From Oscillospiraceae bacterium (GTDB lineage: Bacteria; Bacillota; Clostridia; Oscillospirales; CAG-272), in assembly GCA_015064395.1 (NCBI GenBank), contig SVSH01000004.1:6901-70900 (forward strand): a stretch of 64,000 bases of DNA, written 5' to 3'. Positions 706 to 3,505 of this stretch are shown here, piece by piece. The notes beneath the pieces are model-generated. The model searched no databases and was not told where the DNA came from. It saw only the letters and a program-made list of their open reading frames with translations. Both the position numbers and the translations under genes were made by a program. Position 1 is the stretch's first letter, and every line of letters starts with the position of its first letter.

Positions 706-1302
706 GTGAAAAAGGAATTGATCTGTCGTATCTTTTCGCATATGCCGGAGCTTCAGACCGAGCGACTTTTGCTCCGTCGGATGCGTCTTGGGGACGCCGA
801 GGATATGTACGAATATGCCCGGCAGACCGAGGTGACGCGCTATCTTCTCTGGTCGCCTCACCCCGACATCTCGCACACCCGTGACTATCTCCGTTACATT
901 GCCTCACGCTACGCCACAGGAAGCTTTTACGACTGGGCGATGGTGCTCAAAAAGAGCGGCAAAATGATCGGAACGTGTGGCTTTACCGCCTTTGATTGCC
1001 CCCACGACTCGGCCGAGATCGGCTACGTGCTCAACCCCGCCTGGCGCGGGATGGGTCTTGCTCCCGAGGCAGTGCAGGCCGTGCTTGCCTTTGGCTTTGA
1101 CCGCCTGCTGCTCCATCGCATCGAGGCGCGTTTTATGGAGGGAAATGCGGCATCCTTGCGGGTCATGGAGAAGGTGGGTATGCACTTTGAGGGCTACCAA
1201 AGAGAGAGTATGCTGGTCAAGGGGAGCTATCGCACCATCGGCTGCTGCTCCTTGCTGTCCTCTGAATACAAGCGCATAAAAGCGGAAAAGATGCCCGAAT
1301 AG
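706..1302 (+). CDS. GNAT family N-acetyltransferase (RimJ/RimL-like)
   Basis: LQTERLLLRR, EIGYVLNPAWRGMGLAPEA and NAASLRVMEKVGMHFEG motifs; GTG start after a GA-rich RBS. Confidence 0.9.
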   Translation: MKKELICRIFSHMPELQTERLLLRRMRLGDAEDMYEYARQTEVTRYLLWSPHPDISHTRDYLRYIASRYATGSFYDWAMVLKKSGKMIGTCGFTAFDCPHDSAEIGYVLNPAWRGMGLAPEAVQAVLAFGFDRLLLHRIEARFMEGNAASLRVMEKVGMHFEGYQRESMLVKGSYRTIGCCSLLSSEYKRIKAEKMPE

Positions 1303-1356
1303 GGATCATATTGCCCGTTTTTTTGTAATTCCCGCTTCTTTTTTACAAAATTCCTA

Positions 1357-1385
1357 TTGCCAACGGGAAAAATATATGTTAAAAT
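1357..1385 (+). promoter_or_regulatory. sigmaA-type promoter with extended -10 for the hypothetical-parA operon
   Basis: TTGCCA-N17-TAAAAT, preceded by TGn. Confidence 0.65.
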
Positions 1386-1451
1386 AGTAAGTAATATTGA
1401 GATAAACCAACTGTGCCGCGTGCTTGCGCGGACAGAAAGAAGGATGTAACC

Positions 1452-2132
1452 ATGCAAAAAAGAACCAACCCCTTGGCTCTGAAAAACGATGCGATACCCG
1501 AAGAGGTAAGTACAGAGCCGTCGATCGAGGCGAAGGCGCCGGTAAGGGCTGAGACAGCCGCCCCCCGTCGGGAAGCCCCGATCCATAACGGCATCACTGC
1601 CTCGCAGGTCAAAAAGGCATCAGAATTCACAGCAGCGGGATCGGTCGCAACGTCGGCACCCAAAGCGCCGGCGGCCACACCTTCTTATGCAAAGCCTATC
1701 TATGACAGATCGGCTTATCCGTCCCCCACATCCAGCCTCTATGCTGAGGCCGAGGACGAGCTGGACGACGAGCACATCGACCTGTATGGCGACGAGCCGG
1801 TCGCTCCTGCACCGGCCGCAGACAAGCATCGCCTGTATACCAAGCAAGACGAGCCCGCGCAGGACGTGATCGAGGACGAAGTGCCGTTCCCGACCCTGCA
1901 CGACTTTGAATTGGCCACCAACTTTTCCTTGCGCGGCCGCAATTCCCGCAAGCTGGTCGTGGGCAAGATCAGCCGCGACGTATGCCGACTGGCACAGCTG
2001 CTCCATCCGGATCAAAGCATGTCTACTATCATGGAAAATGCGCTACTGACCCGCATTTTCCTCGAAAACCCCGAGGCGTTTGACGCCATGGCGGAGGTCA
2101 TTGAAGAAAAGGGAGGACGTATCAAATGTTAA
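1452..2132 (+). CDS. hypothetical protein: Pro/Ala/acidic disordered N-terminus plus C-terminal ribbon-helix-helix-like domain; probable ParA partner
   Basis: ATG at 1452 after AAAGAAGGA; low-complexity N-terminal ~150 aa; C-terminal RKLVVGKISRDVCRLAQLLHPDQSMSTIMENAL resembles an RHH; stop overlaps the parA start. Confidence 0.75.
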   Translation: MQKRTNPLALKNDAIPEEVSTEPSIEAKAPVRAETAAPRREAPIHNGITASQVKKASEFTAAGSVATSAPKAPAATPSYAKPIYDRSAYPSPTSSLYAEAEDELDDEHIDLYGDEPVAPAPAADKHRLYTKQDEPAQDVIEDEVPFPTLHDFELATNFSLRGRNSRKLVVGKISRDVCRLAQLLHPDQSMSTIMENALLTRIFLENPEAFDAMAEVIEEKGGRIKC

Positions 2133-2917
2133 TCAGCTTTTTCTGTAAAAAGGGCGGCGTCGGTAAGACGACCGTGACCGGTGAGTTTGCCGGCTACCTG
2201 ACCACCCTGGGCAAGCGCGTGCTTGTCATCAGCATCGACGACCAAAACTCGCTCTTTGAGATGTTCGGTCTTTCTTCCAAGGTGTTTGAGCGCGATGATA
2301 ACTATCTGGAGCATTTTGTGGCCGATAACTGCACCGAGGAGGACGTTCTGATCCCCCTGCGTGAGAATCTGTACGGCGTCAAGACGCTCAATACCGATAT
2401 GCTGTCCAAGAAGCTGACGCTGGAGCGCTCCTTCGAGCGTAACTTTGTGGGCGCGATCATGCAGCTGCAGGCCGGCTTTGATTTCGTGTTCTTCGATCTG
2501 CCGCCTTCCTCTAACCGCACCACCGAGATCCTGCTTGAGAGAACCGATCTGCTCATGCTGATCGTCGAGCTCAACAAGCTGGGTGTCAACGGCTTCTACA
2601 ATACGCTGCAGTATTTCGTCGATAACGACCTGCCCCTGGAGAAGATCCGCTACATACTGCCCAATGGCTATTCCAAGACCAAGTCGGTCCCCGGCGTGGC
2701 CCTCAAGGAGCTCAAGGCCCTCATCCGTGAGAACGTGCCGGAGGCAGTGCTCCTGCCCCTGATGCCTGAGAAGACCATCATCAAGTCGCTCCAGCAGAAG
2801 GGCGTGACCGCCTTTGACGAGGACAACTCCCGCCTGACCAACTACGAAAAGGTGCAAAAGCGCAATATTATGGATACCTTCTCGAACATCTTTGATGCCA
2901 TCGAGATCGAGGTCTGA
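2126..2917 (+). CDS. ParA/MinD family P-loop ATPase (orphan)
   Basis: Deviant Walker A KKGGVGKTT, switch I ISIDDQN, Walker B FVFFDLPPS; GGGAGG RBS. Confidence 0.9.
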   Translation: MLISFFCKKGGVGKTTVTGEFAGYLTTLGKRVLVISIDDQNSLFEMFGLSSKVFERDDNYLEHFVADNCTEEDVLIPLRENLYGVKTLNTDMLSKKLTLERSFERNFVGAIMQLQAGFDFVFFDLPPSSNRTTEILLERTDLLMLIVELNKLGVNGFYNTLQYFVDNDLPLEKIRYILPNGYSKTKSVPGVALKELKALIRENVPEAVLLPLMPEKTIIKSLQQKGVTAFDEDNSRLTNYEKVQKRNIMDTFSNIFDAIEIEV

Positions 2918-2927
2918 TATACGGAAA

Positions 2928-2965
2928 AACAAGAGAACCGCAGATGATTCTGCGGTTCTCTTGTT
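2928..2965. terminator. bidirectional intrinsic terminator
   Basis: Perfect 17-bp stem AACAAGAGAACCGCAGA / TCTGCGGTTCTCTTGTT with a 4-nt loop, between convergent genes. Confidence 0.85.
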
Positions 2966-2968
2966 CTA

Positions 2969-3505
2969 TTACAGTTCCAACCCATGCTCCTTGGCCATCT
3001 TGGCAATCAGGCAAGCAATGCGGTCGGGGGTTTCTTCGAGCGGTGCGTTGTTGTCGTAGTAGTAATCGTAGGGGTAGGACTCCACGTCGTCGTCCGATAC
3101 GTTGCCGTAGCGACCGACGGGCGTGCCGTCATCGCGGCGGACGAGCAGAGTGAGTACGGTATGTCCCTCCATCAGCTTGACAAACGAGGCGATCTGGTCG
3201 CTCTCGCGGATGTGAACGAACAAGATCTGCTCGTCCGTCGTGAGAAACTCGGCGTGCTGTGCCATCATGTAGCGATTGGGCAGGTCGTTGTATTCGGTGA
3301 ACACCCGCTTCAGATCAGACAGAAACTTGCGCGATTTCAGATCCTTTTCTCCGTTCCAGCCGTGCAGGCGAGCAATCTCCTTGATGGGATCTACGGACGA
3401 GATGTTGCGCACGCGGTAAAACTGCGATGCGAAGTCGCACAGCGTGTCCTTGCCGACGCCGCCGCGCCCGTTGATGACGATGGTCAATTTATCCTTGCGT
3501 TGCAT
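2969..3505 (-). CDS. P-loop kinase resembling phage-type deoxynucleoside monophosphate kinases
   Basis: IVINGRGGVGKDT P-loop, SSVDPIKEIA, RKFLSDLK, HIRE and GNVSDDDVESYPYDY..DNN motifs. Confidence 0.6.
   Translation of the reverse strand: MQRKDKLTIVINGRGGVGKDTLCDFASQFYRVRNISSVDPIKEIARLHGWNGEKDLKSRKFLSDLKRVFTEYNDLPNRYMMAQHAEFLTTDEQILFVHIRESDQIASFVKLMEGHTVLTLLVRRDDGTPVGRYGNVSDDDVESYPYDYYYDNNAPLEETPDRIACLIAKMAKEHGLEL

Follow-up and report, generated by a model that had tools for sequence, protein, structure and literature searches.

A Chromosomal ParA Operon with a Peptide-Bearing Partner Protein in an Oscillospiraceae Genus, Assigned to an Apparently Undescribed Family of ParA Systems

Results

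The Operon and Its Expression Signals

A 64,000-nucleotide stretch of DNA from an Oscillospiraceae bacterium (GenBank assembly GCA_015064395.1, contig SVSH01000004.1, positions 6,901 to 70,900; the window hereafter, whose numbering is used throughout) carries at 1357-2965 two overlapping genes, encoding a small partner protein and a ParA-type ATPase. The pair is type Ib-like and belongs to a family of chromosomal ParA systems that is apparently undescribed. Promoter, partner gene, overlapping parA and 3' hairpin all lie as described in a first-pass annotation, made from the letters of the window alone. The features are as follows.

1357-1385, plus strand: sigma-70-type promoter, TTGCCA-17 nt-TAAAAT, with a TG upstream of the -10 (TG-n-TAAAAT); 10 of 12 positions matched
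1440-1444, plus strand: Shine-Dalgarno sequence AAGGA, 7 nt 5' of the ATG, read from the sequence
1452-2132, plus strand: partner (adaptor) gene, an open reading frame of 226 aa, MQKRTNPL...GGRIKC
1452-1484, plus strand: N-terminal peptide MQKRTNPLALK, partner residues 1-11; 94% pairwise identity in the genus (MQKRTNPLxLK)
1485-1892, plus strand: disordered acidic Ala/Pro-rich tether, partner residues 12-147; 25% pairwise identity, 122-216 aa long in the genus
1893-2129, plus strand: folded C-terminal domain, partner residues 148-226 (79 aa); 71% pairwise identity in the genus
2126-2917, plus strand: ParA-type ATPase gene, 263 aa, its start overlapping the partner stop (overlap AAATGTTAA)
2147-2173, plus strand: deviant Walker A motif KKGGVGKTT with the signature lysine, ParA residues 8-16; columns K8-T16 invariant in the subfamily alignment
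2928-2965, no strand assigned: 17-bp perfect hairpin with the shape of a bidirectional terminator, common to parA and the convergent gene at 2969-3505

The promoter, which had been read as a sigmaA element, is the sole sigma-70-type match on the plus strand, and this one match lies within chance expectation (mean of 1.4 in shuffled sequences). Comparison with relatives bears the assignment out: a -35 TTGCCAA and an extended -10 TGnTAcAAT form a recognisable block in the upstream alignment of the close genus relatives (loci L037-L043). Elsewhere in the genus the -35 varies to TTGTAAA in a deeper branch (L046-L048), and one locus (L045) is unalignable. The genus relatives have a Shine-Dalgarno sequence of the GAGGTG type at the equivalent place. 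An alternative in-frame start for the partner, GTG at 1413, would give a protein of 239 aa; the ATG at 1452 is favoured, since partners throughout the family begin with MQKR.

The two frames overlap such that the partner's final AAA-TGT-TAA is re-read as A-ATG-TTA-A. The overlap of the partner stop with the parA start, also a first-pass observation, extends to all members of the genus, in which the junction AAATGYTRA (2123-2132 in the window; L037-L048) is kept, and we therefore take partner and parA, from this conserved arrangement, to be translationally coupled. In other lineages of the class to which the genus belongs (class II, below) partner and parA share a simpler AAATGA overlap. Downstream, the hairpin at 2928-2965 is strong (-30.7 kcal/mol, z = -7.6), in agreement with the strong terminator claimed at first; its U-tract, however, is canonical only for the convergent minus-strand gene (2969-3505), the tail on the plus strand being U-poor, so that action as a strong terminator for parA is plausible rather than established.

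The ATPase

The deviant Walker A motif with its signature lysine, the Walker A' and the Walker B motifs of the ParA are all intact, and the Walker A'/B aspartates D38, D39 and D124 are invariant in the subfamily alignment. Profile searches returned AAA_31 (1.3e-20, 74.5 bits) and CbiA (4.6e-09, 36.7 bits), both above cut-off, and in PHROGs the phage ParA-like family phrog_164 (1.2e-24); every NCBIfam match was under its cut-off, including ParA_partition, PrgP, MinD and BcsQ. On its motifs and profiles the protein is a member of the ParA/MinD (deviant Walker A) ATPase superfamily. It is small and has no N-terminal helix-turn-helix (HTH), the Walker A beginning at residue 8. Nor is it a MinD by profile score (TIGR01968, 28.5 bits against a cut-off of 212.9), and its acidic C-terminus (...FDAIEIEV) holds no MinD-like amphipathic membrane-targeting helix.

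Anatomy of the Partner Protein

The partner matched no family in Pfam, NCBIfam, PHROGs, PADLOC or the PDB sequences, and its whole-length identity across the genus is 34-52%. The layout first proposed for it, a basic N-terminal peptide followed by some 150 aa of Pro/Ala/acidic sequence and a structured C-terminus, was borne out by the unequal identities of the three parts in the genus (94, 25 and 71%) and by AlphaFold2 (AF2) modelling. In the window the tether is composed of 18% Ala, 12% Pro and 19% Asp+Glu and has a net charge of -14. AF2 run on the full-length partner alignment gave disorder to about residue 148, with a predicted local confidence (pLDDT) mostly at or below about 50 for residues 11-140, and confident helices past residue 171; run on the C-terminal 85 aa it gave a pLDDT of 87.9 and a predicted TM score (pTM) of 0.71. 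The C-terminal domain comprises a basic segment, RGRNSRKLVVGK, three helices and a terminal strand, RIKC. In the model of the domain a helix at 149-155 precedes a strand at 159-162 (FSLR), which pairs with the terminal strand at 222-225; the three helices span 175-184, 190-205 and 207-219, and the stretch KLVVGKI lies in coil.

A single cluster (P0189, 292 aa) departs from this layout: it lacks the N-terminal peptide, a C-terminal domain of the same class occupies residues 50-125 in the middle of the protein, and some 165 unrelated residues come after it. P0189 is probably a chimera of assembly or gene calling.

Chromosomal Setting and Inheritance

A profile of the partner detected the protein in each of the 13 species genomes in the window's genus; outside the genus no match came from the genera sampled, about 96 others in the family and 178 others in the order. 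The gene order GNAT-partner-parA-[0-8 kb variable insert]-P-loop-truB-trmB-ychF is kept in the 12 other species of the genus, the insert 3' of parA holding genes of ordinary metabolism (a BadF-type sugar kinase, a MurQ-like SIS protein, an ABC transporter, AzlC, NUDIX). ParA is 76-94% identical across the genus, as compared with 71-88% for truB and 90-97% for ychF, and both frames are intact in 13 of 13 genomes, the pair being under purifying selection in each species. The first-pass annotation had noted a host-like base composition and no ParB, replication gene or integrase near the operon; both observations stand, with an operon GC content of 0.54-0.58 against 0.545 for the genome and housekeeping genes on the flanks. 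The orthologue and synteny survey that it had suggested thus shows a self-contained chromosomal operon, vertically inherited, with housekeeping synteny in all 13 genomes.

Origin on a plasmid or phage was rejected, since tblastn with ParA gave no match among 72,556 plasmids (PLSDB) or 50,697 phage records (INPHARED). Had homologous pairs occurred only on plasmids or integrative and conjugative elements (ICEs), the idea of a domesticated system would have fallen; for the ParA no plasmid or phage match was found. Elsewhere in the genome, contig C23 bears a canonical soj-spo0J with three parS palindromes and C49 bears dnaA; the ParA of the window is therefore an additional one. The three palindromes are near-consensus sites of the TGTTTCACGTGAAACA type lying within about 120 bp (C23:16480-16600), with a soj-like gene on one side and, on the other, the gene for a second ParB_N protein (Noc-like, 385 aa).

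Several other roles for the locus and its neighbours were considered and rejected. A defence system was set aside, PADLOC giving only a weak P-loop match. A toxin-antitoxin pair formed by the upstream GNAT and a ribbon-helix-helix (RHH) partner does not fit a GNAT that is RimJ-like, a gene order that is wrong and a synteny confined to the genus. The convergent gene at 2969-3505 is not a third component, as elsewhere 3.5-8 kb of metabolic genes intervene and it stays with truB. This minus-strand gene encodes a 177-aa P-loop protein (GRGGVGKDT) without a Pfam, NCBIfam or PADLOC family, which stays beside truB throughout the genus (67-93% identity) and is possibly a nucleotide or dNMP kinase-like protein not yet classified.

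A Family of ParA-Partner Pairs Defined by an N-Terminal Peptide

Relatives of the ParA at 45-64% identity occur in metagenome-assembled genomes (MAGs) of Christensenellaceae and other Clostridia, in Anaeroplasmataceae, in Haploplasma axanthum and Alteracholeplasma palmae, and in many Acholeplasmatales/"Bacilli" MAGs. They share the signature blocks FCKKGGVGKTT, SIDDQNS, KTLNTDMLSKKLTLER, DLPPSSNR, NKLGVNGFYNTLQYF and YILPNGYSK. At virtually every locus of this subfamily a gene for a small protein lies directly 5' of parA, abutting or overlapping it. The N-termini of these partners carry [FLIM][KQ][KR]Rx[NSD]P[LFMI], often in two copies; among 79 partners about 72 have the strict form [KQ][KR]Rx[NSD]P[LFMI] at the N-terminus or close to it, and most of the others have close variants. 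As the sole feature of the partner that travels with the ParA subfamily, the peptide is upheld as the candidate ParA-contact element proposed at first. The tethers range from about 20 aa to about 380 aa, and there are two classes of C-terminal domain. Partner-first order and a long tether, both taken initially for oddities of this locus, lose that standing: the first is the rule across the family and the second varies widely within it.

Class I comprises 57 loci in Acholeplasmatales/Bacilli MAGs, whose partners end in KYTATMDxxLRxRxKIAxxxxGxxxSxFIEEAxxEKLEREG. By sequence this C-terminus is an RHH (PDB 2kel, 1.2e-9; Pfam RHH_3, 8e-8; 56B_RHH, 1e-6), with weak Omega_Repress matches in Pfam and a few weak ParG matches. 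The pair is convergent with dnaN-dnaA in 56 of the 57 loci, the sole exception being cut by a contig end, and TATGTA/ATACAT-type repeats lie 5' of it, in one case as a 2-kb field free of open reading frames. Among eight class I genomes checked for ParB, six had no ParB_N match and two had weak matches only, to proteins of about 443 aa. The first-pass annotation missed this origin-linked branch, in which no canonical ParB was detected, because only the letters of the window were visible to it.

The AT-rich repeat fields without open reading frames, up to 2 kb long, are seen at L082:1754-3790 and at many class I loci (L061-L108). Read in frame, they yield spurious N-terminal extensions of the YVYIYMY type, and gene callers therefore likely mis-start class I partner genes. 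In each ParB-less class I genome checked, another ParA/MinD-like gene (260-275 aa) lies some 33-52 kb from the origin-linked module (for example G545:C2:465206-465646, G551:C6:71807-72247 and G544:C21:71796-72239).

Class II consists of the window's genus and 13 other loci, all with the C-terminal domain of the window's partner. That domain is rare: just 62 clusters have it in a set of 1.84 billion representative proteins, and nearly all of these clusters carry the N-terminal motif. None of 27 class II loci (14 from the genus and 13 others) has dnaN or dnaA within 4 kb, no repeat field was found in the genus or at the other class II loci, and in Clostridia the class coexists with canonical Soj-Spo0J. 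One class II partner of 466 aa, from an Anaeroplasmataceae MAG (L056:2581-3981), has the peptide (MQKRKNPM) and the usual C-terminal domain joined by a coiled-coil linker of about 380 aa in place of disorder.

When the ParA tree is rooted on a single outgroup, the Soj of the same genome, the genus joins the rest of class II in one clade (100/100), which has a long stem and lies inside the class I radiation; the genus itself (100/97) is sister to the other class II members. Class II mixes Mollicutes-like Bacilli with Clostridia, and in the family only one of the 97 genera sampled is a carrier, which implies horizontal transfer followed by vertical inheritance. Our literature searches found no description of this ParA-partner family, and in current annotation the partners are all "hypothetical" and the ParA is labelled generically.

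Is the C-Terminal Domain a Ribbon-Helix-Helix?

The C-terminal domain had been proposed to be an RHH. In the window it occupies the same operon position as the proven RHH in the other branch of the orthologous ParA family, and hhalign of the domain against the class I RHH gave weak signals (P 0.005 with 21 sequences and P 0.0024 with 58, each a single pre-planned comparison). The alignment is collinear through strand, helix A, loop and helix B, and the basic cluster sits N-terminal to helix 1, as in RHH ribbons. Against omega, the DNA-binding partner of the type Ib system of pSM19035, BLASTP found nothing and hhalign gave P 0.09. The two top Foldseek matches of the full-length model were both the archaeal RHH protein SegB (E ~1, TM score 0.44-0.52), which is not significant, and the match was lost with the domain-only model. 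The ParB of pCXC100 is reported to be such a case, an RHH undetected by sequence methods, and offers a precedent (PMC3074162). Taking the collinear profile alignment together with the fold comparisons, in which nothing was significant, we judge the domain to be probably RHH-derived, a weaker statement than the one first made.

Heptamer Arrays Elsewhere in the Genome

The genome also contains twelve intergenic arrays of about 150-180 bp, in which three or four direct heptamers are followed by three or four inverted ones (GTGAAAT, GTGATAT or TCGATAT), spaced by short hairpins with UNCG/GNRA-like loops.

Heptamer arrays, part 1: C13:37907-38062, C19:11712-11868, C31:194-348, C32:58077-58228, C34:26993-27146, C36:19013-19156
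Heptamer arrays, part 2: C45:46220-46369, C48:15913-16049, C8:7580-7690, C5:6099-6277, C17:4260-4442, C37:9059-9237

They were considered as binding sites for the partner and rejected. The GTGAAAT and GTGATAT arrays match the Gut-1 RNA of Rfam (RF01706, 56-68 bits) as convergent pairs, those with TCGATAT have the same architecture without being recognised by Rfam, and there is no co-occurrence with the ParA module: the arrays are absent from five other genomes of the genus and from four class II carriers, and present in a non-carrier.

Discussion

A Model for the Operon

We favour, with moderate confidence, the view that the operon is a two-part positioning machine of the ParA type, chromosomal and additional to Soj-Spo0J-parS, whose target is most likely DNA. 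ParA-ATP dimers would coat the nucleoid, and the partner, probably dimeric, would grip a specific target through its folded C-terminal domain, in which the basic stretch could form the ribbon of an RHH-derived fold. The MQKRTNPLxLK peptide, at the end of its 122-216-aa acidic disordered tether, would reach the ParA dimers and trigger ATP hydrolysis, the outcome being diffusion-ratchet movement or spacing of the partner-bound target. This division of labour is suggested by what is constant and what varies. ParA and the KRxNP[LF] peptide are constant while the linker and the C-terminal domain vary, and the peptide should therefore bind ParA; the C-terminal domain, since it varies across the family, should bind the variable target. 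The proposal accords with type Ib systems, whose ATPases are activated by the N-terminal tails of ParG and omega. What we would assert most firmly is that the N-terminal peptide is the probable ParA-contact and ATPase-activating element. That the target is most likely DNA follows from the C-terminal domain being most likely RHH-derived.

Five observations weigh against this view. Neither Pfam, PDB nor Foldseek gave a significant sequence or fold match between an RHH and the C-terminal domain of the window's partner. The stretch KLVVGKI, the putative ribbon, lies in coil in the AF2 monomer, and the sheet is formed instead by FSLR and RIKC, an arrangement absent from RHH proteins, which are obligate dimers. 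No array of iterated or palindromic sites was found in 1250-3000 or upstream of the genus and other class II loci; a centromere near the operon was accordingly rejected, the repeat searches and the genus alignment having shown promoter elements only. The invariant Lys-Cys-stop at the end of the partner (AAA-TGY-TRA) contains the ATG of parA, so that dual coding accounts at least in part for the constancy of the terminal Cys. Finally, a search for RNA sequencing that covers the locus found none, the runs holding this stretch being DNA metagenomes only.

The main rival retains the ParA-adaptor motor and places the C-terminal domain off DNA, the pair positioning a protein or organelle-like cargo over the nucleoid in the manner of McdAB, ParC-ParP or PomXYZ. 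A class II domain without detectable RHH signatures and with an extra helix and a terminal strand would suit such a role, as would the location away from oriC, the lack of a repeat field and the coexistence with a full ParABS; the long disordered or coiled-coil linkers, moreover, recall McdB-type adaptors. However, no conserved neighbouring gene that could encode the cargo is found in any lineage, the contexts all differing, the basic cluster N-terminal to helix 1 resembles an RHH ribbon, and the profiles of the domain and of its RHH relatives align collinearly. We therefore favour DNA and regard protein cargo as unlikely, though as the strongest competitor.

We consider it improbable that the pair is mainly a regulator, whether as a transcription factor or antitoxin-like repressor gated by the ATPase, or as a regulator of the Soj kind acting on replication, division or sporulation. 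In favour of such a role, DnaA is under the control of Soj in Bacillus, and the sister class I is wedged against dnaA-dnaN. The RHH partners of type Ib systems, omega and ParG, are repressors as well (10.1101/2022.05.29.493902). On the other hand, the genus alignment shows no conserved operator-like repeat in the promoter region beyond the promoter elements, a tether of 120-216 aa with an invariant peptide at its end would be odd for a plain repressor, and no toxin-like partner is present, the adjacent GNAT being RimJ-like and syntenic in the genus only.

That the pair is what is left, decaying and without function, of a partition cassette brought in by a plasmid, ICE or phage, as its small type Ib-like ParA, its best profiles (generic partition families: phrog_164 and, far under their NCBIfam cut-offs, ParA_partition and PrgP) and its patchy spread among higher taxa might suggest, is close to refuted by the intact frames, fixed synteny and 76-94% ParA identity in 13 of 13 genomes of the genus, by the host-like GC content, the housekeeping flanks and the lack of integrase or replication genes nearby, and by the empty ParA search of plasmids and phages.

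A positioning machine whose target is most likely DNA remains our preferred reading of the operon. The positioning system, domesticated or novel, that was proposed at first holds good as regards a chromosomal, vertically inherited operon of adaptor and ParA; its C-terminal RHH stays unproven. More tentatively, the KRxNP[LF] peptide may define a ParB-independent chromosomal ParA family. In the ParB-less, Acholeplasmatales-like Bacilli class I would segregate origins by means of an RHH and TATGTA iterons beside dnaA-dnaN, and a branch would have moved between Mollicutes-like Bacilli and gut Clostridia, where it would have been kept as a second, off-origin system beside ParABS, with a remodelled DNA-binding module and a lengthened tether, to position a distinct chromosomal locus or nucleoprotein body.

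On the usual view, chromosomes of bacteria that employ a ParA depend on ParB-parS, and small RHH-type adaptors are regarded as a plasmid and archaeal feature. The locus described here links a genus-wide operon of Clostridia to a family in which ParA and a small peptide-bearing adaptor are a stable chromosomal fixture, with one branch at the origin of genomes in which canonical ParB went undetected. The family offers a short, invariant and easily mutated candidate for a ParA-activating motif, and a natural series of tethers from 20 to 380 aa with which to test how linker length tunes ParA ratchets, and the genus is a case of two ParA systems on one nucleoid. Assignment to the family also improves the annotation of the "hypothetical" partners and of the generic ParA.

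Comparison with Known Systems

In McdAB-like systems a cargo, a carboxysome or other body, is encoded nearby or bound by the adaptor; beside the pair described here no conserved neighbour gene was found in any lineage. From Soj-Spo0J-parS the window pair differs in its partner, which matches no ParB_N/HTH family.

The type Ib delta-omega-parS system of pSM19035, from Firmicute plasmids, likewise has a small ParA without an N-terminal HTH. Omega combines a flexible N-terminal segment bearing Lys and Arg, comparable to the window's peptide (its QKAKRNDTPI, a verified sequence, loosely resembles QKRTNPL), with a small C-terminal DNA-binding domain, the one to which class I relatives give weak Omega_Repress matches. 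The N-terminal residues 1-27 of omega stimulate the ParA delta (10.1101/2022.05.29.493902). In contrast to delta-omega, the window pair is chromosomal and genus-wide, partner-first and translationally coupled, has a tether of 136 aa rather than about 20 aa, lacks a heptad array nearby, and ends in a domain that is not demonstrably an RHH (hhalign P 0.09).

In ParF-ParG-parH of TP228 a Walker-box ATPase works with a dimeric adaptor that has a disordered, arginine-finger-like N-terminal tail and a C-terminal RHH. The window pair is similar in joining a Walker-box ATPase to an adaptor with a disordered N-terminal part, and differs in gene order, in its chromosomal location, in having no detectable similarity to ParG and in that no repeat operator is seen. 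Among type Ib features the small ParA is present at the locus, whereas adjacent iterated repeats and a mobile replicon are not.

Archaeal SegAB is reported to pair a chromosomal ParA homologue with a small site-specific RHH protein that is not a ParB (PMC8682754). This system, which serves chromosome segregation in Sulfolobus (SegB-DNA structure 7dv2), belongs to another domain of life and has another gene order.

The class I module is a relative of a different kind. Sequence-proven RHH domains, short linkers, adjacency to dnaN-dnaA, TATGTA fields and genomes in which no canonical ParB was detected are confined to class I and set it apart from the window's branch. What the two have in common is a ParA of one subfamily (40-53% identity), on a very long branch from Soj and with the same signature blocks, together with a partner-first, coupled gene order and the KRxNP[LF] peptide at the partner's N-terminus.

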